In this document: positions 1 to 48,379 of the stretch, piece after piece
Numbering within the stretch: position 1 is the first letter of the stretch
Layout: the number at the start of each line of letters is the position of its first letter
Source: Escherichia coli
GTDB lineage: Bacteria; Pseudomonadota; Gammaproteobacteria; Enterobacterales; Enterobacteriaceae
Reading direction: 5' to 3' (one strand)
Length of the DNA stretch: 64,000 bases
Assembly: GCF_013315695.1 (NCBI RefSeq)
Contig: NZ_CP054353.1
Program-made: the position numbers and the translations under genes
The notes under the pieces: model-generated
Database searches by the model: none
What the model was told of the DNA's origin: nothing
The model's input: the letters and a program-made list of their open reading frames with translations, nothing else

Positions 1-473
1 CAGCGTCAATCTACTGAATTTCGTTGTCAATCCAGAGGATTTACGCAAATTAACCGTCGATGTTTTACCTACCCTGCGAGTTAATTCCGAGCAGGCCTGA
101 AATACCTGTAGGGTGCAATTCCATATCACGCGATAGATTCTATTCATATAAACGCTCCATATACAAACAATACAGCCACGAAAGAGATGAGTCATCAGAC
201 GTTAAAAATGAAACTTATTAAGTTGTCAGAGGTCTGTATTGAGTGTTGGTTGGAGGTGGGAAGGTGTCAATTTGGCTAATTTGCTAATGCTTTCGAATTG
301 ATAGATTAAAAATTGCATAGTTCTTATTTTATTTAAAAATGAACCATGAGTTATTGTTGCTTAATAAGAAAAATATTTCTTTCAATAAGAAAATTACCAT
401 CATCATATTTAACAAAGAATAGCACTAATTGCTAAAAAAGAACTCTATTAAAACTCTTGGTAATGACTCCAAC

Positions 474-977
474 TTATTGATAGTGTTTTATGTTCAGATA
501 ATGCTCGATGACTTTGTCATGCAGCTCCACCGATTTTGAGAACGACAGCGACTTCCGTCCCAGCCGTGCCAGGTGCTGCCTCAGATTCAGGTTATGCCGC
601 TCAATTCGCTGCGTATATCGCTTGCTGATTACGTGCAGCTTTCCCTTCAGGCGGGATTCATACAGCGGCCAGCCATCCGTCATCCATATCACCACGTCAA
701 AGGGTGACAGCAGGCTCATAAGACGCCCCAGCGTCGCCATAGTGCGTTCACCGAATACGTGCGCAACAACCGTCTTCCGGAGCCTGTCATACGCGTAAAA
801 CAGCCAGCGCTGGCGCGATTTAGCCCCGACATAGCCCCACTGTTCGTCCATTTCCGCGCAGACGATGACGTCACTGCCCGGCTGTATGCGCGAGGTTACC
901 GACTGCGGCCTGAGTTTTTTAAGTGACGTAAAATCGTGTTGAGGCCAACGCCCATAATGCGGGCTGTTGCCCGGCAT
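474..977 (-). CDS. insB: IS1 InsB (transposase made as InsAB' fusion by -1 frameshift)
   Basis: 167-aa translation [25 protein letters not shown]... recognised as IS1 InsB; overlaps the insA 3' end in the -1 frame. Confidence 0.95.
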
Positions 978-1171
978 CCAACGCCATTCATGGCCATATC
1001 AATGATTTTCTGGTGCGTACCGGGTTGAGAAGCGGTGTAAGTGAACTGCAGTTGCCATGTTTTACGGCAGTGAGAGCAGAGATAGCGCTGATGTCCGGCG
1101 GTGCTTTTGCCGTTACGCACCACCCCGTCAGTAGCTGAACAGGAGGGACAGCTGATAGAAACAGAAGCCAC
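896..1171 (-). CDS. insA: IS1 InsA (transposition regulator)
   Basis: 91-aa translation [43 protein letters not shown]... recognised as IS1 InsA. Confidence 0.95.
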
Positions 1172-1453
1172 TGGAGCACCTCAAAAACACCATCATACAC
1201 TAAATCAGTAAGTTGGCAGCATCACCAAAACTCTTTTTCATTCATTTATGCCTTTAGGAATATTCGCTATAAAATAAGGGTTATGCTTAATGTTTTAAGA
1301 AAAATAGCAATTTCCCCTTGAATATAGTACTGGCGATGGAACGATGAATCTGCAAGCTGGCATTTAACAAGCCAGCTCTAAAAGAAGGGAAATAAGAATA
1401 ACTATACTCAAAAACTAACAGCCACGGTCATCATGATGTGGCTGTCAATGAAA

Positions 1454-3045
1454 CTATAACCCAGGCGCTTTCCATAACGACGTCGTCAGTCCATGATCAA
1501 CCAGCCCCAGCTGATCCTGATAAACTGCCTGCCACTTATCGCGTGAATCCTGATAAAGTTCATGCTTTTCCGGGTCTGGTGTGTGCGTCCGTTCCCAGCG
1601 AACCAGGCGTTCTCCGGTTTCTGCTATTGATGAAAAAATTCCGGCACCGACGCCAGCTGCAATGGCACATCCTAATGCGGTGGCTTCTTTGACTACCGGA
1701 ATATTGACGGGTAATCCCGAGACATCAGCGAGAATTTGACTCCATAATTTCCCTTTTGAACCTCCGCCAGCAAAAACCAGCGAGGTGGGATGAATATTCG
1801 AGAAATCAGCAATTTGCTGCAAGTTACACGCTGATACAATCGCCGCATTTTCTTCCAGCGCACGAAACAATGTCGCTTTGTTACATTTATCCGGGTCAAT
1901 GGACAAGTTAATAAAGGAAGGTGCGGCGTGATACCAGGTTTTAAAGCGCATTCTGTCGGAGAAGATCGGCATTACGCCCCACGACCCAGGCGGCACCCGA
2001 CTGGCCATCTCTTCCAGCAGCGTATAGGTGTCGATGCCTAAACGTTCGGCAATCAGTTTTTCTTCGGCACAGAAAGCATCGCGGAACCAGCGCATGGTGA
2101 GTCCGGTAAAAAAGCTTATAGATTCAGCTTGTACCATGCCAGGAATAACATGGGGATTAACGCGCACGTTCATTTCTGGGTCTGTCACCGGCGCGGCTAA
2201 GTTTACAACTTGCTGCCAGAATGTACCGCCAAGAACCGCGGTTTGTGCCGGACGGACAACGCCTAACCCCAGGCAACCAAGTTGCACGTCACCTCCTCCA
2301 ACGACCACCGGAGTGCCGCCTTCAGACCGCAGAGTTCCGCCGCTTGTGAACTTACCACGCCCAGCAATGTGCCGGTTTCTTTGACAGGAGAAAGAATATC
2401 GGCACGCAGGCCAGCCATATCCAGCAATGCAGGTTTCCAGTCACGGGTGGTTAGATCAAGAAGTCCCGTGGTGCCAGCGTTAGAGGGATCCACCGCCAGT
2501 TCGCCGCTGAGCATATAGGCCAGCCAGTCGCTGATCATGGTGATGGTCGACGCCTGTCGGTAGATATCGGAACGATGGTGCGCCAGCCAAAGTAATCTGG
2601 GGATGGCACTTAAAGCCAGCGTTTGTCCGGTCGCGCGATAAACTTCGTTTTCAAAGGTATTGTTGTGCAGTTCTTTAAGTTCGCTAACTTCGCGCGCCGC
2701 TCTGGCATCCACATTGGCGCAGGCCCAGATCGGTGTTCCTTCATTATTATATAAAACAATGCCTTCACGCATCGAACATGCCGAAACGGCAGCGATATAC
2801 TCCGGGGCTATGCCGGCGTTGTGCAGCGCCTGGTGCATACACTCACACGCCAGTTGCCAGTTTTTGTTGAGATCAAATTCCATAGAACCAGGAACGTCCG
2901 GTACTGCCAGGTGCCGCCACTCCGCCTGTCCCACGGCTATTTGATTGCCTTCCAGGTCGAATATCACAGCCCGAATACTTCCGGTGCCTGCATCCAGCGC
3001 CATCAGGTAGTACTTTGATTCTGAAGGGGTAAAGAGTCGAGCCAT
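1454..3045 (-). pseudogene. lsrK: Autoinducer-2 kinase LsrK, split by a 1-bp frameshift near 2316
   Basis: Two overlapping ORFs (2263-3045 = FGGY kinase N-domain, 1454-2308 = C-domain) in different frames; restoring one G in ...aaggcg-gcactcc... gives the continuous reading [23 protein letters not shown]. Confidence 0.8.
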
Positions 3046-3123
3046 TAGATTATCCTCGGCTTATGCGTTCTGTCTGTTCCTCTATACGTTCTCCATCATT
3101 CCCGGTAATAAGGCCATGCAAAT

Positions 3124-4077
3124 TTAACTACGTAAAATCGCCGCTGCTGTGTCCTGATCAGTAACCAGTGCGTTGATATAACCGCCTTTCATTGCAGCGG
3201 CAATTGCTTCGGCTTTATTTTCTCCCCCTGCCACGCCAACCCGGACGGGTATGGTCTTCAGCGCGCTTAAAGGTAAGCCAATCAGTTCGTTATGTATTTT
3301 GATATCCGTGACAACGTCACCTTTTGCATCAAAAAAGTAGCCTAAAATGTCGCCAACCGCCCCTTTTCGGCCAATCATTAACTGTTCGCCCTGGCTGATA
3401 TAACCGGAGCGAATGATCGTCGCGTCGTCTTGTTGACTCACGGCCCCAATGCCGACAATCGCCACATCCGCTGCTTGCGCGGCTAACAGAACATCTTTGA
3501 CGCAATTTTCATTTTTTAGCGTACGGGCAATGTCAGCGGAGGATGCCCGCAACGGAGCCGGAATAATATTCACACTGCACGCCGCGTTAAGCTGCCCGAT
3601 ACCCGTCATATAAGAACCGACGCCACCGGAGAGCGTGACCAGGCGAATTTGCTGTGACGAAATAAAACCACTTAAGCGTTGCAGCGTATTCATGATTGCC
3701 TCGCCAAAACCAATCGCCAGCATCTGTTGTGGTTGAAGTAAACTCATCAACATATGCGCCGCGCCTATCCCCAGTCGCCCGCCGACATCAGCATCCGCAA
3801 GCCCAGGGATCACCCGGACATGTTGCAGCGAAAACTGACGACGTAATTGAGTTTCATATTCCAGACAGCCTTCAAAGCGAGAATTAATCTGTACGCGAAT
3901 AATGCCGGACTGATGCCCTTTCTCCAGCAAGCGCGACACTTTCAAACGGGTCAGGCCGAGACGATCGCTGATCTCGCTCTGGGTCAGCCCGTCGTGATAG
4001 TAAAACCACGCGATCCGCGCGACCTGTTCTTCTTCACACATTCCCTGTTCTGAAATTGCCGAATCGTTGATTGTCAT
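3124..4077 (-). CDS. lsrR: LsrR, SorC-family repressor of the lsr operon
   Basis: 317-aa translation [51 protein letters not shown]... recognised as LsrR; divergent from lsrA. Confidence 0.95.
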
Positions 4078-4325
4078 AATTCATTCTTCACTTTGAACAT
4101 ACTTAAATCTTTAATGCAATTGTTCAGTTCTTGCGCATTTATATCTGTGATGGCAACCACAGTTTGACTCTATGAGCATGAACAAACGCAACCGTGAAAA
4201 TCAAAATAGCATAAATTGTGATCTATTCGTCGGAAATATGTGCAATGTCCACCTAAGGTTATGAACAAATTAAAAGCAGAAATACATTTGTTCAAAACTC
4301 ACCTGCAAAACTGAACGGGGGAAAT
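4078..4325. promoter_or_regulatory. lsrR-lsrA divergent promoter/operator region with a CRP-like site
   Basis: 248-bp AT-rich intergenic region between divergent lsrR and lsrA; TGTGA-N6-CCACA motif (tctgtgatggcaaccacag) near 4145-4160. Sites inferred, not tested. Confidence 0.5.
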
Positions 4326-5861
4326 ATGCAAACGAGTGATACCCGCGCGTTACCGCTACTTTGCGCCCGCTCGGTTTATAAACAGTATTCAGGAGTTAAT
4401 GTCCTGAAAGGCATCGATTTTACGTTGCATCAGGGGGAGGTCCACGCCCTGCTCGGCGGCAATGGTGCCGGTAAATCGACGTTAATGAAGATTATTGCCG
4501 GTATTACCCCTGCTGATAGCGGTACGCTGGAGATTGGGGGCAACAACTACGTCAGATTAACGCCAGTTCATGCTCATCAGCTGGGCATTTATCTCGTTCC
4601 CCAGGAACCGCTGCTTTTTCCAAGCCTGTCGATAAAAGAAAACATCCTGTTTGGTCTGGCAAAAAAACAACTCTCCATACAGAAAATGAATAACTTGCTG
4701 GCGGCGCTGGGCTGCCAGTTTGATCTGCATAGTCTGGCAGGATCGCTGGATGTCGCCGATCGCCAAATGGTGGAAATCCTCCGCGGGCTGATGCGCGATT
4801 CGCGAATTCTGATCCTCGATGAACCTACCGCCTCGCTTACTCCCGCCGAAACCGAACGTTTGTTTATTCGCTTGCGGGAGTTGCTTGCTACTGGCGTGGG
4901 TATTGTTTTTATCTCGCATAAGCTGCCGGAAATTCGCCAGATTGCCGACCGAATTAGCGTGATGCGCGACGGAACCATCGCCTTAAGCGGCAAAACCAGC
5001 GAACTGTCTACCGACGACATTATTCAGGCCATTACGCCAGCGCTACGGGAAAAATCGCTCTCTGCCAGCCAAAAATTATGGCTGGAATTACCTGGCAACC
5101 GCCCACAACATGCCGCGGGAACGCCGGTGCTGACACTGGAAAATCTGACCGGCGAAGGTTTCAGGAATGTCAGCCTGACGCTCAATGCCGGAGAAATTCT
5201 GGGCCTGGCTGGGCTGGTGGGAGCCGGACGCACAGAACTGGCCGAGACGCTCTATGGTCTGCGTACTTTGCGTGGCGGACGCATTATGCTGAATGGTAAA
5301 GAGATCAATAGATTATCCACCGGAGAACGTTTACTGCGCGGTCTGGTTTATCTGCCGGAAGATCGCCAGTCATCCGGACTTAATCTCGATGCTTCACTGG
5401 CGTGGAACGTCTGCGCCCTTACTCATAACCTTCGTGGATTCTGGGCGAAAACCGCGAAAGATAATGCCACCCTGGAACGATATCGTCGGGCGCTGAATAT
5501 TAAATTTAACCAACCGGAACAAGCTGCGCGGACCTTATCCGGCGGCAACCAGCAAAAAATCCTGATTGCCAAATGCCTGGAAGCCTCGCCGCAAGTATTG
5601 ATTGTCGATGAGCCGACGCGCGGCGTGGATGTCTCGGCGCGTAATGATATCTACCAACTGTTGCGCAGCATCGCCGCACAGAATGTGGCTGTGCTGCTTA
5701 TCTCCTCTGATCTCGAAGAGATCGAACTGATGGCAGATCGCGTGTATGTGATGCATCAGGGCGAAATTGCCCACTCTGCACTGACCGGGCGCGATATTAA
5801 TGTCGAGACCATTATGCGCGTTGCCTTCGGCGATAGTCAGCGTCAGGAGGCGTCATGCTGA
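4326..5861 (+). CDS. lsrA: LsrA, AI-2 ABC transporter ATP-binding protein
   Basis: 511 aa with duplicated ABC ATPase motifs ([17 protein letters not shown]); first gene of lsrACDBFG. Confidence 0.95.
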
Positions 5862-6883
5862 AATTTATTCAGAACAACCGTGAAATCACGGCACTGCTGG
5901 CGGTGGTGCTGCTGTTTGTATTACCCGGTTTTCTCGACCGTCAGTATTTAAGTGTGCAAACGCTGACCATGGTTTATAGCAGCGCGCAAATCCTGATCCT
6001 GCTGGCAATGGGCGCGACGCTGGTAATGCTTACGCGCAATATTGATGTTTCAGTGGGTTCGATTACCGGAATGTGCGCGGTGCTGTTGGGGATGTTACTG
6101 AACGCGGGGTATTCACTACCTGTTGCTTGTGTCGCGACTTTACTGCTTGGTTTGCTCGCGGGATTTTTCAACGGTGTCCTGCTCGCGTGGCTAAAGATCC
6201 CTGCCATTGTTGCCACGCTCGGTACATTAGGGTTGTACAGAGGCATCATGTTGCTGTGGACTGGCGGTAAATGGATTGAGGGATTACCCGCCGAACTGAA
6301 ACAACTCTCCGCCCCGCTGCTGTTTGGCGTTTCCGCGATTGGTTGGTTGACGATAATTCTGGTGGCATTTATGGCCTGGCTGCTGGCAAAGACGGCGTTT
6401 GGACGCAGTTTTTATGTCACGGGCGATAATTTACAGGGCGCTCGTCAACTGGGCGTTCGTACGGAAGCCATTCGCATTGTGGCATTTTCGTTGAACGGCT
6501 GCATGGCGGCACTGGCGGGAATTGTGTTTGCTTCGCAGATTGGTTTTATCCCCAACCAGACCGGTACCGGGCTGGAGATGAAAGCAATTGCAGCCTGCGT
6601 GCTGGGCGGCATTAGTTTGCTCGGCGGTTCCGGTGCGATCATCGGTGCGGTACTAGGCGCATGGTTCCTGACGCAGATCGATAGCGTACTGGTGCTGTTA
6701 CGCATTCCGGCATGGTGGAATGATTTTATCGCGGGCATGGTTCTGCTGGCGGTGCTGGTGTTTGATGGACGCCTGCGTTGTGCGCTGGAACGTAATCTGC
6801 GGCGGCAAAAATATGCCCGCTTTATGATGCCACCGCCATCCGTTAAACCCGCTTCGTCAGGTAAAAAACGGGAGGCCGCATAA
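5855..6883 (+). CDS. lsrC: LsrC, AI-2 ABC transporter permease
   Basis: 342-aa polytopic membrane protein; start overlaps lsrA stop; synteny. Confidence 0.9.
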
Positions 6884-7875
6884 TGCGTATTCGCTACGGT
6901 TGGGAACTGGCTCTTGCCGCACTGCTCGTTATTGAGATTGTTGCATTTGGTGCAATTAACCCGCGGATGTTAGATCTCAATATGTTGCTGTTCAGCACCA
7001 GTGACTTTATCTGCATTGGCATTGTCGCCCTACCGCTGACGATGGTGATTGTCAGTGGTGGGATCGATATTTCGTTTGGTTCGACTATCGGCCTGTGCGC
7101 CATCGCATTGGGTGTGTTGTTTCAAGGCGGCGTGCCGATGCCGCTGGCGATTATCCTGACGTTACTGCTCGGCGCATTGTGCGGGTTGATCAACGCCGGA
7201 TTAATTATCTATACCAAAGTTAACCCGCTGGTGATTACGCTTGGCACGCTGTATCTGTTTGCCGGAAGCGCCCTGCTGCTTTCCGGGATGGCCGGAGCGA
7301 CGGGGTACGAAGGTATTGGTGGATTCCCGATGGCGTTTACAGATTTCGCTAACCTGGATGTACTGGGACTCCCCGTTCCGCTGATTATCTTCCTGATATG
7401 TCTCCTCGTTTTCTGGCTCTGGCTGCATAAAACCCATGCCGGACGTTACGTGTTTTTAATTGGGCAAAGCCCGCGTGTGGCGGTTTATAGCGCGATTCCA
7501 GTTAACCGCACCTTGTGTGCGCTCTATGCCATGACGGGGCTGGCGTCTGCGGTCGCCGCTGTGCTGCTGGTATCGTATTTTGGTTCAGCACGTTCCGATC
7601 TCGGTGCGTCGTTTCTGATGCCCGCCATCACCGCCGTAGTGCTCGGCGGTGCCAATATTTATGGAGGTTCTGGTTCCATTATCGGCACCGCCATTGCGGT
7701 TTTATTAGTGGGATATTTGCAACAAGGTTTGCAAATGGCAGGAGTGCCAAATCAGGTGTCCAGCGCCCTTTCCGGTGCGCTACTTATCGTCGTTGTCGTA
7801 GGTCGTTCCGTTAGCCTGCATCGCCAGCAAATTAAAGAGTGGCTGGCGCGTCGGGCCAATAACCCATTGCCATAA
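6883..7875 (+). CDS. lsrD: LsrD, AI-2 ABC transporter permease
   Basis: 330-aa membrane protein; ATGA overlap with lsrC; synteny. Confidence 0.9.
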
Positions 7876-7886
7876 AGGATATCTTC

Positions 7887-8909
7887 ATGACACTTCATCG
7901 CTTTAAGAAAATCGCCTTACTTAGCGCTCTTGGCATTGCCGCAATCTCTATGAATGTGCAGGCCGCAGAGCGTATTGCATTTATTCCCAAACTGGTTGGC
8001 GTGGGATTTTTTACCAGCGGTGGCAACGGCGCACAACAAGCGGGTAAAGAGCTGGGCGTTGATGTGACCTACGACGGGCCGACAGAACCCAGTGTTTCTG
8101 GTCAGGTACAGTTGATTAATAACTTCGTCAATCAGGGCTATAACGCCATTATCGTTTCTGCGGTTTCGCCTGATGGCTTGTGTCCGGCACTGAAACGCGC
8201 CATGCAACGTGGTGTGAGAGTGCTGACCTGGGACTCTGATACTAAACCGGAGTGCCGCTCTTACTACATTAATCAGGGAACGCCCGCCCAGTTGGGAGGT
8301 ATGTTGGTGGATATGGCGGCGCGTCAGGTGAATAAAGACAAAGCCAAAGTCGCGTTTTTCTACTCAAGCCCCACCGTTACGGACCAAAACCAGTGGGTGA
8401 AAGAAGCGAAAGCGAAAATCGCCAAAGAGCATCCAGGCTGGGAAATTGTCACTACGCAGTTTGGCTATAACGATGCCACTAAATCGTTACAAACCGCAGA
8501 AGGAATATTAAAAGCCTATAACGATCTCGACGCCATTATCGCCCCCGATGCCAATGCCCTGCCCGCTGCCGCACAAGCCGCAGAAAACCTGAAAAATGAC
8601 AAAGTTGCGATTGTCGGATTCAGTACGCCAAACGTGATGCGTCCATATGTGGAACGCGGCACGGTGAAAGAATTTGGCCTGTGGGATGTGGTTCAGCAAG
8701 GCAAAATATCAGTTTATGTCGCGGATGCATTATTGAAAAAAGGATCAATGAAAACGGGCGACAAGCTGGATATTCAGGGCGTAGGTCAGGTGGAAGTCTC
8801 GCCAAACAGCGTTCAGGGCTATGACTACGAAGCGGATGGTAATGGCATCGTACTGTTACCGGAGCGCGTGATATTCAACAAAGAGAATATCGGCAAATAC
8901 GATTTCTGA
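7887..8909 (+). CDS. lsrB: LsrB, periplasmic AI-2 binding protein
   Basis: 340 aa with signal peptide ([26 protein letters not shown]) and periplasmic sugar-binding fold; synteny. Confidence 0.9.
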
Positions 8910-8935
8910 TGTGCATTACTTAACCGGAGTACGTT

Positions 8936-9811
8936 ATGGCAGATTTAGACGATATTAAAGATGGTAAAGATTTTCGTACCGATCAACCGCAAAAAAATAT
9001 CCCTTTTACCCTGAAAGGTTGCGGTGCACTGGATTGGGGAATGCAGTCACGCTTATCGCGGATATTTAATCCGAAAACGGGTAAAACCGTGATGCTGGCC
9101 TTTGATCATGGTTATTTTCAGGGGCCGACTACTGGACTTGAACGCATTGATATAAATATCGCCCCGCTGTTTGAACATGCCGATGTATTAATGTGTACGC
9201 GCGGCATTTTGCGCAGCGTAGTCCCCCCTGCGACCAATAAGCCGGTGGTACTGCGGGCGTCAGGTGCGAACTCTATTCTGGCGGAATTAAGTAATGAAGC
9301 CGTGGCGTTATCGATGGATGACGCCGTGCGCCTGAACAGTTGCGCGGTGGCGGCGCAGGTTTATATCGGCAGCGAATATGAACATCAGTCGATCAAAAAT
9401 ATTATTCAGCTGGTCGATGCCGGAATGAAAGTGGGAATGCCGACCATGGCCGTGACTGGCGTGGGCAAAGATATGGTGCGCGATCAGCGTTATTTCTCGC
9501 TCGCGACTCGAATCGCCGCTGAAATGGGGGCGCAAATTATCAAAACCTATTATGTCGAAAAAGGTTTTGAACGGATTGTTGCCGGATGTCCGGTACCCAT
9601 TGTTATTGCTGGCGGTAAAAAATTACCGGAGCGCGAGGCGCTGGAAATGTGCTGGCAGGCTATCGATCAGGGCGCTTCTGGTGTGGATATGGGGCGTAAT
9701 ATTTTCCAGTCTGACCATCCGGTGGCGATGATGAAAGCCGTACAGGCGGTGGTACACCATAACGAAACGGCTGATCGGGCATATGAACTCTATCTGAGTG
9801 AAAAACAGTAA
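8936..9811 (+). CDS. lsrF: LsrF, aldolase-like thiolase acting on phospho-AI-2 derivative
   Basis: 291 aa, DhnA/class I aldolase-like; position after lsrB. Confidence 0.9.
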
Positions 9812-9834
9812 CTGCGGATTTAAGGAGAAGAATT

Positions 9835-10125
9835 ATGCACGTCACACTGGTTGAAATTAACGTTCATGAAGACAAGGTTGACGAGTTTATCGAAGTTTTT
9901 CGCCAGAACCACCTGGGCTCGGTACAGGAAGAAGGCAATTTGCGCTTCGATGTCTTACAGGACCCGGAAGTGAATTCGCGCTTTTATATCTACGAAGCTT
10001 ATAAAGATGAAGACGCAGTGGCGTTCCATAAAACCACGCCCCACTACAAAACCTGTGTCGCAAAACTGGAAGCTTTAATGACCGGGCCGCGTAAAAAACG
10101 TCTGTTCAATGGATTGATGCCGTGA
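9835..10125 (+). CDS. lsrG: LsrG, phospho-AI-2 isomerase
   Basis: 96-aa antibiotic-biosynthesis-monooxygenase-like protein; last gene of operon. Confidence 0.9.
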
Positions 10126-10181
10126 GGCGAATTTATCAGTTTTATCTACACTAGGGGTAACGCGCTGACGGGAGTAAAAAT

Positions 10182-10940
10182 ATGTCTGACTGGAACCCCT
10201 CTTTATATCTGCACTTTGCCGCTGAACGATCGCGTCCGGCGATGGAGCTGCTTGCCAGAGTGCCGCTGGAGAATATCGAATACGTTGCCGATCTTGGCTG
10301 TGGCCCAGGTAACAGCACCGCACTGCTGCATCAACGTTGGCCTGCGGCCAGGATAACAGGCATCGACTCGTCTCCGGCGATGATTGCTGAAGCGCGCAGT
10401 GCTTTGCCAGACTGCCAGTTCGTGGAAGCAGACATCCGCAACTGGCAACCGGAACAGGCACTCGATCTGATTTTTGCTAATGCCTCACTGCAATGGCTGC
10501 CCGACCACTACGAATTGTTCCCTCATCTGGTTTCTTTACTTAATTCGCATGGTGTGTTGGCAGTACAGATGCCAGATAACTGGCTGGAGCCGACCCATGT
10601 GCTCATGCGCGAAGTTGCCTGGGAACAAAACTACCCGGATCGCGGGCGTGAGCCGCTGGCTGGCGTTCATGCTTACTACGATATTCTGAGTGAAGCCGGA
10701 TGTGAGGTCGATATCTGGCGAACCACTTACTATCACCAGATGCCGTCGCACCAGGCGATTATCGATTGGGTGACCGCCACTGGATTACGTCCGTGGTTAC
10801 AGGATCTGACCGAGAGCGAACAGCAGCATTTTCTTACGCGCTACCATCAGATGCTGGAAGAGCAATATCCCCTCCAGGAGAACGGACAGATATTGCTGGC
10901 ATTTCCGCGTCTGTTTATTGTTGCCCGCCGTACGGAGTAA
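10182..10940 (+). CDS. tam: Trans-aconitate 2-methyltransferase
   Basis: 252 aa with SAM-binding motif [12 protein letters not shown]; synteny after lsrG. Confidence 0.9.
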
Positions 10941-10943
10941 TTA

Positions 10944-11858: not shown

Positions 11859-12013
11859 GGTTATCTTCAGGCGTGGAAAAGTCGCCCTATTAAACGTGAT
11901 TACGATCACATTCTCAATACGCTACTTACAAATTACCTACAAGCTTACAACATTAACAGGCGCTGCATGTGACACCTGTTAATGATAAAGGCATATAGGA
12001 TGTTGTAACTAAT

Positions 12014-12050
12014 ATAGTAAAATAAGAAACCCGGTCGAAACCGGGTTCAG
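12014..12050 (-). terminator. Rho-independent terminator after uxaB
   Basis: Stem aacccggt/accgggtt followed on the minus strand by a T-rich run (tcttatttt). Confidence 0.6.
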
Positions 12051-23589: not shown

Positions 23590-26730
<3,141 letters not shown>

Positions 26731-28527: not shown

Positions 28528-29722
<1,195 letters not shown>

Positions 29723-37680: not shown

Positions 37681-37816
37681 TTTCTTCTCCTGAACGCGAG
37701 GTGTTCCATAGCGTAGGCTTACTGATAACGGAGTGCAATCTTGCAAACCAGTATTACCCGCTCTTAAGCATCACGTGCTATGTTATTGACACACAAAAGC
37801 GTTGAGGAACAGTGAG

Positions 37817-38563
37817 ATGATCGTTTTAGTAACTGGAGCAACGGCAGGTTTTGGTGAATGCATTACTCGTCGTTTTATTCAACAAGGGCATAAAGTTATC
37901 GCCACTGGCCGTCGCCAGGAGCGGTTGCAGGAGTTAAAAGATGAACTGGGAGATAATCTGTATATCGCCCAACTGGACGTTCGCAACCGCGCCGCTATTG
38001 AAGAGATGCTGGCATCGCTCCCTGCCGAGTGGAGCAATATTGATATCCTGGTAAACAATGCCGGCCTGGCGTTGGGCATGGAGCCTGCGCATAAAGCCAG
38101 CATTGAAGACTGGGAAACGATGATTGATACCAACAACAAAGGCCTGGTATATATGACGCGCGCCGTCTTACCGGGTATGGTTGAACGTAATCATGGTCAT
38201 ATTATTAACATTGGCTCAACGGCAGGCAGCTGGCCGTATGCCGGTGGTAACGTTTACGGTGCGACGAAAGCGTTTGTTCGTCAGTTTAGCCTGAATCTGC
38301 GTACGGACCTGCATGGTACGGCGGTGCGCGTCACCGACATCGAACCGGGTCTGGTGGGTGGCACCGAGTTTTCCAATGTCCGCTTTAAAGGCGATGACGG
38401 TAAAGCGGAAAAAACCTATCAAAATACCGTTGCATTGACGCCAGAAGATGTCAGCGAAGCCGTCTGGTGGGTGTCAACGCTGCCTGCTCACGTCAATATC
38501 AATACCCTGGAAATGATGCCGGTTACCCAAAGCTATGCCGGACTGAATGTCCACCGTCAGTAA
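37817..38563 (+). CDS. ydfG: NADP-dependent 3-hydroxy acid dehydrogenase YdfG (SDR family)
   Basis: TGATAGFG Rossmann motif and YxxxK; likely start at MIVLVTGA. Confidence 0.9.
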   Translation: MIVLVTGATAGFGECITRRFIQQGHKVIATGRRQERLQELKDELGDNLYIAQLDVRNRAAIEEMLASLPAEWSNIDILVNNAGLALGMEPAHKASIEDWETMIDTNNKGLVYMTRAVLPGMVERNHGHIINIGSTAGSWPYAGGNVYGATKAFVRQFSLNLRTDLHGTAVRVTDIEPGLVGGTEFSNVRFKGDDGKAEKTYQNTVALTPEDVSEAVWWVSTLPAHVNINTLEMMPVTQSYAGLNVHRQ

Positions 38564-38651
38564 TTTTTATACCCGGCGTAACTGCCGGGTTATTGCTTGT
38601 CACAAAAAAGTGGTAGACTCATGCAGTTAACTCACTCACAAGCAAGAACGA

Positions 38652-39338
38652 ATGACCGTCGAAACGCAACTTAATCCCACACAGCCTGTCAATCAGCAGA
38701 TTTATCGTATTCTTCGTCGCGACATTGTCCATTGCCTGATTGCTCCAGGCACACCGTTGTCGGAAAAAGAAGTTTCTGTTCGTTTCAATGTGTCACGCCA
38801 GCCGGTTCGTGAAGCCTTTATTAAACTGGCGGAAAACGGTCTGATTCAAATTCGTCCGCAGCGTGGCAGCTACGTCAACAAAATTTCCATGGCCCAGGTG
38901 CGCAACGGCAGTTTTATCCGTCAGGCCATTGAGTGCGCGGTGGCGCGTCGGGCGGCGAGCATGATTACCGAAAGCCAGTGCTACCAACTGGAACAAAATC
39001 TTCACCAGCAACGCATTGCCATTGAGCGCAAGCAACTGGATGATTTTTTTGAACTTGATGACAACTTCCATCAACTCCTGACGCAGATTGCCGACTGTCA
39101 ACTGGCGTGGGATACCATTGAGAACCTGAAAGCGACCGTTGATCGCGTGCGCTATATGAGTTTCGACCACGTTTCTCCACCAGAAATGCTGTTACGCCAG
39201 CATCTTGAGATTTTCTCTGCCCTGCAAAAACGTGATGGCGATGCGGTAGAACGTGCAATGACGCAACATTTGCAGGAAATCAGCGAATCCGTGCGCCAGA
39301 TCCGCCAGGAAAACAGCGACTGGTTTAGCGAAGAGTAG
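38652..39338 (+). CDS. ydfH: GntR/FadR-family regulator YdfH (RspR)
   Basis: 228 aa; N-terminal GntR HTH and FCD domain; synteny. Confidence 0.85.
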
Positions 39339-39515
39339 TTCATTTCCTCTCATCCCATCCGGGGTGAGAGTCTATTCGCCCCGCCTTATGGCTCATGCAT
39401 GCATCAAAAAAGATGTGAGCTTGATCAAAAACAAAAAATATTTCACTCGACAGGAGTATTTATATTGCGCCCGTTACGTGGGCTTCGACTGTAAATCAGA
39501 AAGGAGAAAACACCT

Positions 39516-39719
39516 ATGACGACCTACGATCGTAACCGTAACGCAATCACCACTGGCAGCCGTGTTATGGTTAGCGGCACCGGTCACACTGGCAAGATCC
39601 TGTCGATTGATACTGAAGGTCTGACCGCTGAGCAAATCCGCCGCGGAAAAACCGTAGTTGTTGAAGGTTGTGAAGAGAAACTGGCACCTCTGGACCTGAT
39701 TCGTCTCGGCATGAACTAA
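39516..39719 (+). CDS. ydfZ: YdfZ, small selenium-binding protein
   Basis: 67-aa ORF with strong RBS (aaaggagaaaacacctATG); synteny. Confidence 0.85.
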
Positions 39720-39726
39720 GCGTGTG

Positions 39727-39757
39727 AATGCCGCCGATGGCGGCATTGCTTTTTTTA
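39727..39757 (+). terminator. Bidirectional rho-independent terminator between ydfZ and ydfI
   Basis: Stem aatgccgcc/ggcggcatt followed by gcttttttt. Confidence 0.7.
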
Positions 39758-41215
39758 CTTCACGGAATATTTCGCCACGGTCGCTTTCGCACCATGCGCT
39801 AATAAAGACAAGTACGCTTCCGTCACTTTTGCAGTAAACAAGCTATTGTCTGGCAAATCATCACCAAAGATCGCCTTAATCGCCAGCAATGACTGGACGC
39901 GCGCTTTCCCTTCGGCACTACTTTGTACAGCCTTCTGAATAACAGGTAACAGTGGGTCACTGATTTCTATCGGATTTCCCTGTTCATCAACACCACCGAC
40001 ATAACGCATCCAACCTGCGACGCCCAGCGCCAGCAGATCGAACTTGCTGTCATGCGCCAGATGCCAGCGAACAGAATCCAACATCCGCTGTGGCAATTTC
40101 TGGCTGCCATCCATAGCAATCTGCCAGGTTCGATGACGTAGCGCCGGGTTGCTATAGCGTTCAATTAATCGGTTAGCGTAATCTTGCAAATCAACGCCCT
40201 GCACTTTCAACGTCGGCGCTTGTTCCTGCAACATCAAGGCATACGCTGCATGACGATAATGTTCATCTTCCATGCAGTCATTAATGTGCTGATATCCGGC
40301 AAGATAACCCAGATACGCCAGGAATGAATGACTGCCGTTGAGCATGCGCAACTTCATCTCTTCATAAGGCAGCACATCACTAACCAGTTCGGCTCCCGCT
40401 TTTTCCCATTCCGGACGTCCGGCAACAAAGTTATCTTCTATTACCCACTGGCGGAAAGGTTCACAGGCAACGCCAGCAGGATCGCGCACACCGGTAAGTT
40501 GTTCGATTTTCGTCAGCATATCCTCTGTCACTGCGGGCACAATACGGTCCACCATTGTTGATGGGAAAGTCACGTTTTCTTCGATCCATTGTGCCAGTTT
40601 TACATCAACAGCTTGCGCGTAGGAAGTGACAACGTCACGCATAACATGACCGTTTTCTGGCATGTTGTCACATGACATGACGGTAAATGCGGGAAGTCCT
40701 GCCGCTTTACGGCGAGCCAGCGCCTCGACAATCACCCCTGTTGCAGTTTTCGGCTGGTGGGGATTTTGAACGTCGGCAACGACCATCGGGTGATCGAGCA
40801 TTAACTGTCCGGTCGCCGGAGAGTGGAAATACCCTTTTTCGGTGATTGTCAGAGAGACAATCGCGATTTGCGGTTCACACATCGCAGCCAACACGGTTTC
40901 TAAGCCATCAATCTGTACGTGCAAGGCTTTTTTAACGACGCCAACGACGCGAGCCGTCCACGCATCGGCCGACATTTCCGCAACGGTATAAAGATTATCT
41001 TGCTGTTGTAAATCGGCAATTTGCTGTTCGCCGCCGATTAAATTGACCTCATAATATCCCCAGTCACTGAAATGTTTTGTAGCAAGAATATCGGCATACA
41101 CGCCCTGATGCGCACGGTGAAATGCACCAAAGCCTAAATGAACAATTCTTGGGGCCAGGTTATTACGATCATAAACAGGGAGCGTCGCTTTTGCTGATAA
41201 CAAATTATTTCCCAT
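39755..41215 (-). CDS. ydfI: Mannitol-dehydrogenase-family oxidoreductase YdfI
   Basis: 486 aa; mannitol DH Rossmann and C-terminal domains; synteny. Confidence 0.85.
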
Positions 41216-41303
41216 AACAATTCCTTAAATATAAATATGGCAAGCTACATGTTTTGTTATATGAATAAAAATCCCCTCTCCGGTAAGAGAAGGGATTGAG
41301 GAT

Positions 41304-42587
41304 TTAAAGACTTCTGGAAGGTTGCGCAGCTCTGACAACACGAAGTTGATCTTCCGCAGCGTCTTCCAGCGCACTTAAATCACGGTCTTTCACTTCTGGC
41401 ATTTTCAGCGCAGAGATTAAACCAATCACTGAATATGCCATGATCATAATGGCGATCGGATACCAGGATTCCGTCATGGTGCAGAAAATACCCGCCAGGA
41501 TAGGACCAAAACCGGAAGCGATAAGACCACCAATTTCTTTAGAAATAGCCATCCGGGTAAAGCGGTTTTTACAGCCGAACATTTCTGCCATGGTAATGTT
41601 TTCCAGAGCAAATAATCCCAGCACCGCACAGTTATGAATCACAATCAGTGCAACCATAATGGTGCTCGGGGCATAGCTTTTATCTACGATGATAGAAAGC
41701 ATTGGCCACGCCAGCACAATCGCAGAGGTATTCATAATAATATACGGGATCCGGCGACCTATTTTATCGGATAACCAACCAAGGAACGGAATGGTCATAA
41801 AGCCGAGAATCGAACTGATCATCAATGCATCTGTTGGAATTGCTTTGTTAAACAATAACGTCTGCACTAAATAGCCTGCAAGGAAAGTCTGAATTAAACC
41901 GGAGTTACCAGCCTGACCAAAACGCAGCCCTGTTGCCAGCCAGAAGGATTTGCTCTGGAACATGCTACCAGCAGGTGCAGGTTTTGCTGTCGGTTGGTTG
42001 CTGTCGTTAACCTTCTCAAAGACCGGGCTTTCTTTCAGATTCATACGCAACCAGATAGCAAAGACCATCACGACAACGCTCGCCAGGAACGGTATACGCC
42101 ATCCCCACGCCAGCAGTTCCTCTTTACTGAGAATGAAGAACATAAAGGCCCAGATTGCCGTTGCGCTTAAGGTTCCGCAGTTAGTTCCCATAGCCACAAA
42201 TGAGGAGATAATTCCGCGCTTACCTTTTGGCGCATATTCCGCCAGCATCGTACCGGCACCGGAAATTTCCGCGCCTGCCCCCAGCCCCTGAATAATACGC
42301 AGCGTCACCAGCAAAATTGGCGCAAACACACCAATTTGTGCATAGGTCGGCAGCACACCAATTAAGGTGGTACAGATCCCCATCATAGTTATGGTAATAA
42401 AGAGCACTTTTTTACGCCCGATTCTGTCGCCCATTTTGCCGAAAATAAATGCTCCGACAATACGCGCCACATAACCTGCACCGTAGGTTCCCATTGCCAG
42501 AATTAACGCCATTGCCGTTGATGATTCAGGAAAAAATATTTCATGAAACACTAACGCTGCGCCGAGCGAATATAACTGGAAATCCAT
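41304..42587 (-). pseudogene. ydfJ: MFS metabolite:H+ symporter YdfJ, 5'-truncated at the prophage junction
   Basis: 427-aa ORF begins MDFQLYS, i.e. inside the conserved N-terminal EWxDF region of this transporter family; prophage-side DNA starts immediately upstream. Confidence 0.7.
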
Positions 42588-43190
42588 AATTCACAGGTGT
42601 TTTTTCCCATCCTGTGGTTTCCTTGGCGTTTTCTAGGTTTTTTCAGATAGTTGCATTTTTTAAAAAGCATCCTAAGTTCGATCTCAGTGTCTATCTGGGG
42701 CCTATTTCTGTCCCATATATGCCCCAAAAAAACTCCTCAACAGATAAGTAGTTTTTTCATGGAGTTACGCGTAAAATCAATAACGGCTGGAAATCATTCA
42801 ATACTCGCACTATCGAAAAATTTACCAGCCAACCGCAGCACGTTCTTGCATAAGGCGTGTCTGCGGTTTTTCAACTATTCAGATACATCACTCCCATCAC
42901 ATTCATTCCTCCGCATCAAAGGCATATAGGCTATATCACCTTGATATTTTTCTTCTTCAGATAAAAACTGTTATCTATGTATACTTTTAAACCCAATCCG
43001 TGTAGAGTCTCTGCATAAGATAGTTTGCAGTTGCCACTTCAGCTTGCGCCATAAACCGCCTGATTTTTGCCGCCATCTGTTAGCATTCCTGTATACCTGA
43101 AACGACAATGTTTATCTACGAACTTTAAGAACACCCAGGATAAAAATTGTCAACTATATCATATATAACACATTACTAATTCGAGGCTAT

Positions 43191-43304
43191 ATGAACAGCA
43201 TACTGATAATCACTTCGCTCCTTATCATATTCAGCATTTTTAGTCATGCTCTAATAAAATTAGGGATTGGCATATCCAATAACCCAGACAAAACCGATGT
43301 ATAA
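43191..43304 (+). CDS. Candidate small hydrophobic protein, 37 aa
   Basis: ATG with RBS (cgaggctatATG); translation [37 protein letters not shown]; prediction only. Confidence 0.3.
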
Positions 43305-43372
43305 GTCAACATATCCTGAATCAGACATACAATATCGCAATGAAAATCAATAATATTTTAAGGAATATATTC

Positions 43373-43606
43373 ATGAAATCAAAAGACACCCTAAAGTGGT
43401 TCCCTGCGCAGCTTCCTGAAGTCAGAATTATCCTAGGGGATGCTGTAGTGGAAGTAGCAAAACAGGGAAGACCTATCAATACCAGAACATTGCTTGATTA
43501 CATTGAAGGAAACATAAAGAAAAAATCATGGCTGGATAACAAAGAATTATTACAAACAGCGATATCAGTTCTTAAAGACAACCAAAATTTAAATGGTAAA
43601 ATGTAA
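43373..43606 (+). CDS. ydfK: YdfK, prophage cold-shock-associated protein
   Basis: Translation MKSKDTLKWFPAQLPEVRIILGDAVVEVAKQGRPINTRTLLDYIEGNIKKK... recognised (YdfK/YnaE family). Confidence 0.9.
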   Translation: MKSKDTLKWFPAQLPEVRIILGDAVVEVAKQGRPINTRTLLDYIEGNIKKKSWLDNKELLQTAISVLKDNQNLNGKM

Positions 43607-43922
43607 TATAATAAACTTACTTTTTTATCATTTTTCCACTTTAACAACATTTTGCTCCACTTTTCCACGACCAAACAACTTGAAATCTGGTTAAAATAAC
43701 ACGCAACACTATTCTTCTTCCTTGAGTCCGCCCGGAACTCGAAAAACAAACCGAGTTAAAGCCATTTTTCACAAAATCGATTTTGGGTCTCACCAAAATT
43801 ACGGGGTTGCATACGCATTCGTTTATTTTCGAACGTGTACATACAAACATGCACAAAAATAATCAAAATTATTTTCTGAGATGCATTATGATATGAACAC
43901 CAATTTCGTATAGAGTCTCACT

Positions 43923-44513
43923 ATGTCTCGAATTTTTGCTTACTGTCGGATATCAACGCTGGATCAGACCACCGAAAATCAACGCCGGGAAATCGAAAGT
44001 GCAGGTTTTAAAATCAAACCTCAGCAAATAATCGAAGAACACATTAGCGGCTCAGCAGCAACCAGTGAGCGTCCTGGTTTTAACCGGTTGCTTGCTCGCC
44101 TGAAATGTGGTGATCAATTGATTGTGACAAAACTGGATCGCCTTGGTTGTAATGCAATGGATATCAGGAAAACAGTGGAACAACTGACCGAAACAGGTAT
44201 CAGAGTGCATTGCTTAGCATTGGGGGGCATTGACCTGACCAGTCCAACAGGAAAAATGATGATGCAAGTAATTTCAGCAGTCGCTGAATTTGAACGAGAC
44301 CTTTTACTTGAACGCACTCATTCCGGGATAGTAAGAGCCCGGGGCGCAGGGAAACGTTTTGGTCGACCACCTGTGTTAAATGAAGAACAGAAACAGGTGG
44401 TATTCGAACGGATTAAGTCAGGTGTAAGTATAAGTGCCATTGCCCGGGAATTCAAAACCTCGCGGCAAACCATTTTAAGAGCCAAAGCAAAACTTCAGAC
44501 ACCTGACATATAA
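43923..44513 (+). CDS. pinQ: Serine-recombinase DNA invertase (Pin/Gin/Hin family)
   Basis: 196 aa; N-terminal resolvase catalytic domain (YCRISTLDQ) and C-terminal HTH; prophage context. Confidence 0.9.
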
Positions 44514-44740
44514 AAAATAATCTCGGTGTGAGATGCCTTACGTCTTCCAAGCCCCCTTCCTTGCCGTAAATGGAAAGATACATCTAATTATAGAATTTAT
44601 ATGTTTTACCCTACGGCAGTGCTGGCCATTCAATATCCTGTGCAGTTGACGTATCAACACGGTTCAGCAACACCCGATACTTCTTCCAGGCTTCCCGCAA
44701 CGAGGTTTCTTCCTCCGTTGCATATACAGCTCACCTTTTT

Positions 44741-45034
44741 TCACCCACGATTAACCAACAGCCAGACCAGCAGACACGCCACCACCGGCACAGCAAAATC
44801 CATCAGGCTTGCCACATCCCACGCACGCGGATCAAAACCGCCCCACCACGGCATATTCATACGCTTGCCATGCCCGAACATTTCAATCCAGCGATATTCT
44901 GCCTGGGTATGTTCACGCGCAATGAAGAACGTACAACCAGCTATCGCCCCGTAAGCCCAGTTTCCGGTAAAAAGACCAACCAGTACCTGCGCAGCCACAG
45001 CACAAAGTGCATGAAGGAAAGGTGTTATATCCAT
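44741..45034 (-). CDS. Hypothetical small membrane protein, 97 aa
   Basis: Two hydrophobic segments flank a charged W/R-rich loop; start 11 nt after the stop of the 234-aa ORF. Confidence 0.5.
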   Translation of the reverse strand: MDITPFLHALCAVAAQVLVGLFTGNWAYGAIAGCTFFIAREHTQAEYRWIEMFGHGKRMNMPWWGGFDPRAWDVASLMDFAVPVVACLLVWLLVNRG

Positions 45035-45044
45035 TACGCCTCCT

Positions 45045-45749
45045 TTATCCGATATCGCTTCGGGAAACGGATAACAACTTTAATTCTGACTCAAGTTCAT
45101 CAACTCTTTCAGTCAGCTTCTGGATATGGTGAATCAGTGGAACAACCAGACGTTCGTACATTACACCTTCGGCAACAAGGCCATTGCTGGAAATGGTTTC
45201 CGGTGCATCATCTTCGTTGGCTGGTCGCCAGTGAACAAACTGAGGGGCAATTTCTCCTACTTCCTCGGCAATCAATCCATAGAATCCCCAGTCACGCCTG
45301 TCATTTTCGCATTGCGACCTGTACCACACAGGGCGCATCCTGAAAATGAGATCGGCGTGCTCTGAATCTATCGTCTCTACTGAATGTTTATAGCGGATAG
45401 ACGATGTTGACCGCAGCACAGACGAAATTGCAGGGTCAGGATTAAGATAAAGATTTGCCGCCGCTGTAGTTGTGCCCAATCCCCATAAATAAAACGCTTC
45501 ACGGCCAGTCAGCGGGTAAAAATCTCCGCCATAACGACCACTTTCCAGATCGTTCACTTCCACTTTGTTTTTCAGCTTATTATCAACTTCAGTTTTTGTG
45601 TATCTGGTGCTGATATCCTGCTTTGCACTGGCCATATCAGTCTGAAGCGTTGATACTTTTCCGTTAATAGAGGAAATATCTTCCTTTGCTTTACTAACAT
45701 CTCCCTTCAGCGTGGTGATGTCTCCCGGAATTACTGTTGATGTAGCCAT
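45045..45749 (-). CDS. Tail fibre/tailspike-like protein with C-terminal intramolecular-chaperone (peptidase S74-like) domain, 234 aa
   Basis: N-terminal coiled-coil-like region; C-terminal TSSIRYKHSVETID...GLIAEEVGEIAPQFV...YERLVVPLIHHIQKLTERVDELESEL resembles the autoproteolytic chaperone of endosialidase-type fibres. Motif-level recognition only. Confidence 0.5.
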   Translation of the reverse strand: MATSTVIPGDITTLKGDVSKAKEDISSINGKVSTLQTDMASAKQDISTRYTKTEVDNKLKNKVEVNDLESGRYGGDFYPLTGREAFYLWGLGTTTAAANLYLNPDPAISSVLRSTSSIRYKHSVETIDSEHADLIFRMRPVWYRSQCENDRRDWGFYGLIAEEVGEIAPQFVHWRPANEDDAPETISSNGLVAEGVMYERLVVPLIHHIQKLTERVDELESELKLLSVSRSDIG

Positions 45750-45758
45750 TTCTCTACC

Positions 45759-46040
45759 TCACATCCAGCCACGAAGTTGATGCTCAACAGCAACCGCGTA
45801 TTCATCGAATAATGACGATATTTGCGTATCCTTAATAATGCGCACGTTTACAAAATATCCATCTTCCTTAACACATACCGGTTCGCCATCTTCAGTCAGC
45901 TCTCCGGTTTCTTTGTACACGTTACCTATCACATCAATCAGAATATCATCCTGCATCGACTCGTCATTATAATAGCCAATACTTCCCATAAAGGCCGAAA
46001 AGTCGGCCCTGTCGGCAAATTTGAGTGTTAAATCTTTCAT
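45759..46040 (-). CDS. Hypothetical acidic protein, 93 aa, translationally coupled to the native stf stop
   Basis: ATG overlaps the TAA of the reconstructed stf reading frame (TAATG); no recognisable domain. Confidence 0.45.
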   Translation of the reverse strand: MKDLTLKFADRADFSAFMGSIGYYNDESMQDDILIDVIGNVYKETGELTEDGEPVCVKEDGYFVNVRIIKDTQISSLFDEYAVAVEHQLRGWM

Positions 46041-46246
46041 TAGATTGACTCCCCCATCTGAGCATCAGTCAATGCCTTGTGCCAAATACGCAGATTTCGA
46101 ACGTGTCCAAATAGGTGACGGTTGCCGGATGATGATTGACCACCAATATTAATGAAGCCTCCTGTATATTTGTGTTTTTTATAAGGAGAAAGGTGATGCT
46201 GCCAACTTACTGATTTAGTGTATGATGGTGTTTTTGAGGTGCTCCA

Positions 46247-46522
46247 GTGGCTTCTGTTTCTATCAGCTGTCCCTCCTGTTCAGCTACTGACGGGGTGGTG
46301 CGTAACGGCAAAAGCACCGCCGGACATCAGCGCTATCTCTGCTCTCACTGCCGTAAAACATGGCAACTGCAGTTCACTTACACCGCTTCTCAACCCGGTA
46401 CGCACCAGAAAATCATTGATATGGCCATGAATGGCGTTGGATGCCGGGCAACAGCCCGCATTATGGGCGTTGGCCTCAACACGATTTTACGTCACTTAAA
46501 AAACTCAGGCCGCAGTCGGTAA
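46247..46522 (+). CDS. insA: IS1 InsA
   Basis: Identical 91-aa InsA translation to copy A. Confidence 0.95.
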
Positions 46523-46944
46523 CCTCGCGCATACAGCCGGGCAGTGACGTCATCGTCTGCGCGGAAATGGACGAACAGTGGGGCTATGTCGGGGCTAAAT
46601 CGCGCCAGCGCTGGCTGTTTTACGCGTATGACAGGCTCCGGAAGACGGTTGTTGCGCACGTATTCGGTGAACGCACTATGGCGACGCTGGGGCGTCTTAT
46701 GAGCCTGCTGTCACCCTTTGACGTGGTGATATGGATGACGGATGGCTGGCCGCTGTATGAATCCCGCCTGAAGGGAAAGCTGCACGTAATCAGCAAGCGA
46801 TATACGCAGCGAATTGAGCGGCATAACCTGAATCTGAGGCAGCACCTGGCACGGCTGGGACGGAAGTCGCTGTCGTTCTCAAAATCGGTGGAGCTGCATG
46901 ACAAAGTCATCGGGCATTATCTGAACATAAAACACTATCAATAA
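46441..46944 (+). CDS. insB: IS1 InsB
   Basis: 167-aa InsB; one residue differs from copy A (G versus E near the C-terminus). Confidence 0.95.
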
Positions 46945-48379
46945 GTTGGAGTCATTACCAAGGAGAAACTACCTTAGCACCAATATTACCGTTAACCACA
47001 ACACACAATTCTCGACTTTCTGTGAATCTAAAGCCGATAATGCTTTTTCTCTCTGGTCGTTCTATAACGCTTTTATATTCTATTTTAGTGCCTTTACCAT
47101 TTGTAATGATTGCGCGTGCTCCCAAAGATGTATACCCCAAATACATATAACTTTCATCTGCAATTTCAGTTGTATCTCCCGTAGTGGAAATATTAAGAAT
47201 ACGTGCGCTACCTTCTTTGTTTGGCGATTCATCCCAATTGGTATTAACTTCTGCTAATGAACTAATAGCGGGATTGCACCAATTTAGAGAAATGGGGACC
47301 GTTACAATATCGCTGGCGCGTGTTACAGGGGATGCGCCTGTTATAATAAACGATGAAGCGCATGCCCCACCTTCAACTTGAGGGGTCGCAATATAAATAT
47401 AATCATCCGCGCCAGTGCCCACTCCTTTTGCCGGGGCATACTGAACCATTCCACCTATCATATTTTCTGTATCAAGTGCCTTAATTGTCGCCTCAAAAAA
47501 GATCCATTTGCTTGCTTCATCTTTAACAGCCCTTGCAGTAATGCGATTAGCGGCACCACCCGTCTTATCAATAGATAAATCTGTCGTATTTAAGTAAGCG
47601 TCACCTAAGAATGTGTAGGTAGAACCATCATAGTTTTCAAATCGTAATCGGCATCTTAAATTTGGAGTGCCACTTTGCACCCTGCATGATATGGTTACAT
47701 ACTTTTCTCCGCCTGTTACATCAAAACCTTTACTGCCGGAAACGGTTACTATGTTAATCGCTGAAATTTGCCCTACCATTTCTGGTTTTAATGTAAATTT
47801 TGCGTACTGGAATCCGAAATCATCTACACCTGATGCACTTAAGATCATATTTGACGACTTGTTCCATTTAGTCGGATTTGTTGAATTGATTAGCAGGTTA
47901 GTTCTTTGCCCCTCAATAAGCAGGCCATCACGTTCAAATCGTGGCTCGTCAATGGCAGCCTCTGTCAGCACACCAGATTTATTAATGTAAGTTGCTTTCG
48001 ATGCGCGTTTAAACTTTACAATCTTGTCGCCAGGCATTGTTATTTCATCGTCGCCAATAACAATTTTTTTATATGATGGCGAAAAGCCCGTAATCATATC
48101 CAGTGAATCATTAAACGGTATCCACACATCGGGCAACGGCTGCAAAACTTGTTTATACGGCTCCGCTGCCTGGCTTGCATACTCTCTGGCTGCGTCTTCA
48201 CTTGCTTTAGCTGCTGTCTGGCTTGCTGCCGATGCTTGCGCCGAGTTCGCCGCCGCAGTCTCGCTCGCCTTTGCGTTGGTTTCACTGGTTTTTGCTGCTT
48301 TTTGACTGTTAGCTGATGCAGTGGCAGAAGCAGCCGCCGCGCTTGCAGAACTGGCTGCGGCACTCTCGCTTTGGGCCGC

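Follow-up and report, generated by a model that had tools for sequence, protein, structure and literature searches.

Two IS1 copies in opposite orientation bracket 45 kb of the Escherichia coli replication terminus region, with no IS1-IS1 inversion apparent between them

IS1 elements of the IS1A/IS1B type, known from Escherichia coli K-12, E. coli B and Shigella, are 768 bp long, end in 23-bp imperfect inverted repeats, express insA and insB' through a -1 frameshift at an A6C site, and make 9-bp target duplications, preferably in AT-rich targets. Two copies of IS1 may also flank a composite transposon, as in Tn9 and Tn1681. Moreover, two inverted copies of one insertion sequence (IS) are the substrate for chromosomal inversion, as in the 1.49-Mb IS1-IS1 inversion of Ara-1 in the long-term evolution experiment (LTEE; PMC4173774), and the IS-rich genomes of Shigella flexneri, S. 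boydii and E. coli IAI39, EDL933 and SMS-3-5 have rearranged replication fork traps in which Ter sites are flipped and dif lies between the innermost Ter sites (PMC8347550). Here we describe a pair of IS1 copies, A and B, in a 64,000-nucleotide stretch of E. coli DNA (the window; contig NZ_CP054353.1 of assembly GCF_013315695.1). We conclude, with a probability of roughly 90%, that each copy arose by its own, independent simple insertion, that the two face opposite ways at a distance of 45 kb, and that no IS1-IS1 inversion is present.

Copy A occupies positions 459-1226 on the minus strand (right inverted repeat, IRR, at 459; left inverted repeat, IRL, at 1226), with insA at 896-1171 and the insB frame at 474-977, both on the minus strand. 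Copy B, which has the canonical sequence, occupies 46192-46959 on the plus strand, with insA at 46247-46522, the insB frame at 46441-46944 and the A6C frameshift site at 46498-46504, all on the plus strand. Both elements are 768 bp long, with terminal inverted repeats (GGTGATGCTGCCAACTTACTGAT / GGTAATGACTCCAACTTATTGAT) that agree at 18 of 23 positions; this is the size and repeat structure of the IS1 family. Both reading frames, insA and insB, are intact, as is the A6C slippery site, with insB' following insA in the -1 frame, as is typical of IS1. Pfam matches to InsA (PF03811, PF12759) and to the IS1 DDE transposase (PF03400, E ~1e-78) are well above the cut-off. The PGAP annotation of NZ_LR898874.1, the chromosome of the closely related strain MSB1_4I, likewise has an IS1-like element IS1A family transposase with a programmed frameshift at the copy A locus.

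Each copy is flanked by a direct 9-bp target duplication, also characteristic of the IS1 family: AAAACTCTT for copy A (left, 450-458; right, 1227-1235) and AAGGAGAAA for copy B (left, 46183-46191; right, 46960-46968). Both duplications match at 9/9 positions, an outcome with a chance probability of ~4e-6 for each copy, and each is represented by a single copy at the empty sites of relatives. The AT content of the two targets is 76% and 67%, versus 51% for the window. A repeat finder run on the window reported one inverted repeat pair, 456-1226 / 46192-46962, of 771 nt; the 3 nt that it extends past the 768-bp elements are a chance CTT/AAG match. On base-by-base comparison a single base, IS1 position 722 (505 of the window in copy A, 46913 in copy B), separates the copies, which are thus 99.87% identical over 768 bp. 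InsB reads ...KVIEHY... at this site in copy A and ...KVIGHY... in copy B. It is copy A that carries the rare allele, a G->A change giving Gly->Glu in InsB: an exact 57-mer containing it occurs in 3 of 8,305 IS1-bearing records, and the change lowers the Pfam DDE_Tnp_IS1 score by 3.7 bits. The first-pass annotation of the window had described two inverted copies, each with its own matching duplication, differing by at least one InsB residue. This description holds; re-inspection for mismatched repeats found none at AAAACTCTT or AAGGAGAAA, and the alignment shows exactly one differing residue (Gly/Glu).

To place the insertions in time, we compared the window with MSB1_4I (NZ_LR898874.1, from 2,589,001), the closest complete genome, with MS 21-1, and with 5,426 complete E. 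coli genomes. Over the first 28.5 kb of the window there are 3 mismatches to MSB1_4I, one of which is the variant base of copy A. Copy A is present in MSB1_4I at the identical site, and its sequence there is that of the window's copy B. Site B, in contrast, is empty in MSB1_4I, with one copy of AAGGAGAAA; in the alignment of the two genomes copy B with its 9-bp duplication is a clean insertion, as is an IS5 element described below. IS1 was found at site B in none of the 5,426 genomes, and many of them have the uninterrupted site at 99.7-100% identity. In MS 21-1, whose flanks are 99.9% identical, sites A and B are both empty, and AAAACTCTT is single. Since copy A is common to the window and MSB1_4I, where site B is empty, copy A predates the split from MSB1_4I and copy B postdates it. 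Furthermore, because the copy A allele is rare and private, copy B was copied from a canonical IS1 and not from the present copy A. By these comparisons copy A inserted first and has since gained its private G->A change (InsB Gly->Glu), and copy B is a recent, lineage-private insertion of a canonical IS1 of the IS1A type.

IS1 can transpose replicatively and its new insertions favour nearby sites (PMC5009759), which would be in keeping with copy B having arisen from copy A through an intramolecular, replicative event (duplicative inversion). Such an event, however, would have left the segment reversed and each IS1 with only one of the two repeats of the target duplication. It is refuted by the direct 9-bp duplication that each copy has of its own and by collinearity with relatives; moreover, the duplication of copy A is already in MSB1_4I, so that we regard this origin as scarcely conceivable. 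Inverted IS1 pairs can form composite transposons, and the two copies with the 45 kb between them might have been inserted as one such unit. The outer flanks, however, share no duplication (AAAACTCTT vs AAGGAGAAA), which refutes this; the interior is not passenger DNA but core chromosome, which MS 21-1 has at the corresponding location with no IS1, and the two copies were acquired at different times. Insertion as a unit can therefore be given almost no credence.

Recombination between inverted IS copies exchanges one flank of each, so unswapped duplications indicate that no IS1-IS1 inversion has taken place. The terminus region of MSB1_4I provides a positive control. MS 21-1 has a K-12-like order (ydeP, ydeQRS, usher, dif, hipB, autotransporter, lsrK ... 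ydfJ', prophage, exo, xis, int, rspB), compared with which MSB1_4I carries two nested fixed inversions within 2,542,115-2,675,601 of NZ_LR898874.1, recognizable by swapped duplications and split genes. One, of ~131 kb, extends from ydeQ to the fumC/fumA intergenic region and is bounded by an IS4 pair: IS4a (2,542,115, plus strand) has GTCCCCAGGGAG on the left and CCGCCCTTCGGGG on the right, and IS4c (2,674,171, minus strand) has CCGCCCTTCGGGG on the left and GTCCCCAGGGAG on the right. The other, of ~88 kb, runs between the ydeT usher gene and that for the prophage exonuclease and is bounded by an IS2 pair: IS2L (2,581,150, plus strand) has left flank CCTCA and right flank AAATG, and IS2R (2,670,135, minus strand) has left flank AAATG and right flank (C)CTCA. 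A third IS4 copy (IS4b) and IS1 copy A have matched duplications in the same genome. The net effect of the two inversions is that the block equivalent to the window is in native orientation, while the rspB...tus-fumC block (TerB, tus) is reversed and lies on the other side of dif, with TerB at 2,546,025. In both inversions dif is part of the inverted DNA and remains between TerB' and TerC; the innermost trap, TerB' - dif - TerC, spans ~55 kb, and the FtsK-orienting polar sequences (KOPS) still converge on dif.

No such reciprocal exchange was seen at the IS1 pair of the window, where each copy keeps its own matched duplication. Nor is the bracketed segment (1236-46182) reversed relative to genomes lacking one or both IS1 copies: it is collinear with MSB1_4I and MS 21-1, and the annotation of NZ_LR898874.1, the collinear alignment and GC skew all agree that its gene order and orientation are native. 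Measured on the plus strand, GC skew is -0.040 for the segment and -0.080 for the DNA to its right, both negative. The window has 3 KOPS, all on the minus strand, a number (4.8 are expected by chance) too small for a statistical test of polarity; what is informative is that they share a strand. TerC is on the strand opposite dif, as in MG1655 (PMC8347550). Finally, we found no IS1-IS1 recombinant junction in the 5,426 genomes; the sole partial match, in H31, has 93% identity and consists of two separated pieces. Independence of the insertions and the lack of a fixed inversion between them, both proposed on first pass, are thereby upheld, the former by the empty site B in MSB1_4I and the 5,426 genomes together with the shared copy A, and the latter by the unswapped duplications and collinearity with both relatives. 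No homologous exchange between the two copies has become fixed, and the segment retains its ancestral orientation.

Some considerations weigh against this conclusion. Matched duplications exclude an odd number of inversions, but neither an even number nor a minority subpopulation in the inverted state, and the orientation assigned to DNA between near-identical 768-bp repeats can be trusted no further than the long-range data underlying the assembly. Inversion between IS copies creates no new flank-to-IS junction and so leaves no junction signal (PMC5009759). The one base that distinguishes the copies is 47 nt from the IRR end, a position from which it cannot reveal earlier crossovers. The segment might therefore have flipped an even number of times, or might interconvert in the population, the assembled state being one of two isomers: inverted repeats of 768 bp and 99.87% identity suffice as a substrate for RecA, and IS1-mediated inversions are documented (PMC4173774). 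However, recombination between IS copies, summed over all pairs, occurs at a low rate, ~4.5e-5 per genome per generation in mutation-accumulation lines (PMC5009759), the pair is young, copy B being absent from a sister strain as close as MSB1_4I, and the orientation is the ancestral one. Repeated flipping or interconversion is thus very unlikely.

Alternatively, the orientation shown could be a choice made in assembly, for example a reference-guided one, as short reads cannot settle orientation between 768-bp inverted repeats (PMC5009759). The window is, however, contiguous and contains full-length IS elements (two IS1, IS5, and an IS30 nested in an IS3), as is typical of long-read assemblies, and the native GC skew and the orientation of TerC agree with the assembled state. 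An assembly artefact is, accordingly, highly improbable.

Two inverted insertions without an inversion between them, the reading that we favour, need no special cause. The uninverted state is unremarkable because the pair is young, as judged from the 3 mismatches in 28.5 kb, and because recombination is rare for any one IS pair. IS1 is, moreover, abundant in this lineage (4 copies in the 203 kb around the locus in MSB1_4I and at least 40 places on its chromosome), so nearby inverted pairs are expected by chance. An IS1 pair in an IS-rich E. coli is already-known biology. It is textbook knowledge that genomes of the species hold IS1 copies whose duplications are intact and IS pairs that could mediate an inversion, and relatives of this strain have dozens of IS1 copies; the pair is of little significance alone. 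The pair is nevertheless a potential substrate for RecA-dependent inversion, and its position makes the consequences of such an event worth considering.

The replication terminator TerC (ATATAGGATGTTGTAACTAATAT), which the first-pass annotation had not noted, is at 11993-12015 on the plus strand, between yneE and uxaB and inside the bracketed segment. Two KOPS octamers also lie within the segment, GGGCAGGG at 8557-8564 and GGGAAGGG at 23666-23673, both on the minus strand and pointing left, towards dif. The presence of TerC assigns the window to the region where replication terminates; dif lies a few kb further left. We did not find dif in the window itself and took its position from MSB1_4I and MS 21-1; in MSB1_4I it is 5,494 bp to the left of copy A, which puts the first KOPS of the segment ~13.6 kb from it. 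From this layout, an IS1-IS1 inversion would flip TerC and the two KOPS, exclude dif, and leave dif outside the innermost pair of Ter sites.

Starting about 6 kb from dif, such an inversion would probably be disfavoured or costly. The dif activity zone reaches ~10 kb on either side of dif, and XerCD/dif recombination decreased 23-32-fold when non-permissive KOPS bound dif (PMC2680272); movement of dif beyond terB lengthened the doubling time (PMC8347550). The expectation of a cost has counter-examples, however. An engineered intra-Ter inversion, Inv(dif-ydfE), is tolerated if dif stays at the polarity junction (PMC2585057), arrangements with TerC flipped exist in Shigella (PMC8347550), and there are just two KOPS in the segment.

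These considerations raise the question of whether the uninverted state is actively kept by selection, rather than reflecting mere youth, given what inversion would do: dif would not be included, KOPS polarity next to it would be reversed, and a flipped TerC would put dif outside the innermost trap. In favour of this are the location of TerC and both KOPS within the segment, the proximity of copy A to dif in MSB1_4I, and the fact that both inversions fixed in that genome include dif and hold it between TerB' and TerC. Against it, the first KOPS of the segment is some distance from dif, intra-Ter inversions can be tolerated (PMC2585057), and the youth of the pair suffices as an explanation. We therefore consider selection possible though unlikely. 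It is quite doubtful, too, that the pair has stayed unrecombined through selection and not just youth in a lineage that has fixed only dif-including inversions, which left KOPS convergent and narrowed the fork trap to ~55 kb, with that of the IS1 pair the first to exclude dif, to flip TerC alone and to place dif beyond the innermost trap. If this were true, such strains would offer a natural test of the requirement that dif sit between the innermost Ter sites. With an IS1 pair that brackets TerC beside dif, and a sister genome whose terminus has been remodelled by IS elements, the locus offers in any case a handy natural example for studying which inversions of the terminus can be tolerated.

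Copy A is intergenic, between lsrK and a gene for an autotransporter with an extended signal peptide region (ESPR). The interval from the 3' end of lsrK to the 5' end of the autotransporter gene (~150-1450 of the window) is a recurrent IS1 target across genomes: other genomes have IS1 ~100 bp from site A with the duplication GAGTTATTG, one has the IS1X2 isoform within a few bp of site A, and others have IS1 copies inside the autotransporter gene, one of them with an adjacent deletion. Elsewhere in the terminus region of MSB1_4I, the IS1 copy at 2,558,843 has a matched duplication (CAAAGGCGG). Two further copies, at 2,521,783-2,522,550 and 2,680,995-2,681,762, have mismatched flanks beside truncated genes (dosP; uidC/uidB), a sequence pattern that indicates IS1-associated deletions.

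Copy B lies in a defective prophage. It truncated a tail-fibre gene (46955-49228, minus strand), whose open reading frame now ends in ...VVSPW inside the duplication and the IS1 end; the insertion is ~143 nt ahead of the original stop, so that the ~47 last codons are lost. The prophage tail genes were already broken by an IS3-family element, itself carrying IS30, and the insertion of copy B was probably neutral. The same tail-fibre gene contains, in a part rich in Ala, Ser, Thr and Lys codons, a tandem 189-nt repeat (48251-48628) of two units that are 82% identical. The prophage part of the window differs from MSB1_4I by an extra unit of this repeat, which makes the window 189 nt longer there, and by ~160 mismatches (48000-61500) clustered at ~48.0-49.0, 54.5-57.5 and 59-61.5 kb. 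Such clustering suggests that the differences came from other lambdoid prophages, through mosaic recombination or gene conversion, and not from point mutation.

The lsr-mar-prophage content that the first-pass annotation had given for the intervening segment was confirmed by the annotation of the near-identical NZ_LR898874.1. The segment starts with lsrK (frameshifted), lsrR, lsrACDBFG, tam, yneE, TerC, uxaB, glsB, sad, ydeA and marCRAB. It continues with a cellobiose-type phosphotransferase system (PTS) operon, in which an IS5 lies, and then with eamA, ydeE, dgcZ, dcp, ydfG, ydfI and ydfJ', and ends in the prophage, which is of the Qin-like defective kind and contributes ydfK, pinQ and tail-fibre genes. 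The lsrK gene, which encodes the autoinducer-2 (AI-2) kinase, is at 1454-3045 of the window and is frameshifted according to the annotation of the identical sequence in MSB1_4I; going by this annotation, AI-2 processing is probably defective in the lineage. The PTS operon encodes IIB, IIC, IIA, a porin and a 6-phospho-beta-glucosidase. Its IS5 (28528-29722, minus strand; 1195 bp, duplication TTAG) lies between the IIB and IIC genes; it is a further lineage-specific insertion, full-length and not found in MSB1_4I or any close relative, and is not part of the IS1 pair. It could exert polarity on, or activate, the downstream genes of the operon. A pinQ-type serine invertase gene (~43919-44509) adjoins remnants of tail-fibre and tail-fibre-assembly genes; this remnant of a programmed site-specific inversion system is within the bracketed segment, ~1.7 kb from copy B.

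Taken as individual elements, the two copies agree with the IS1A/IS1B type in length, ends, frameshifted genes, target duplications and AT-rich targets; nothing structural sets them apart, and copy A alone has a rare Gly->Glu change near the C terminus of InsB. As a pair, they resemble composites of the Tn9 and Tn1681 type in that two IS1 copies bracket a segment of DNA, but differ in having no shared outer duplication, an interior of 45 kb of core genome and copies of different age. With the LTEE Ara-1 inversion and with the IS4 and IS2 pairs of MSB1_4I they share the substrate, two inverted copies of one IS; unlike the IS4 and IS2 pairs, they have not exchanged duplications, and the recombination has not occurred. 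The rearranged fork traps of Shigella and the E. coli strains named above are a pattern to which MSB1_4I conforms, its relocation of terB and tus resembling that of IAI39 (PMC8347550). Those rearrangements, however, are fixed, whereas the IS1 inversion of the window is only potential and would break the rule that dif lies between the innermost Ter sites.

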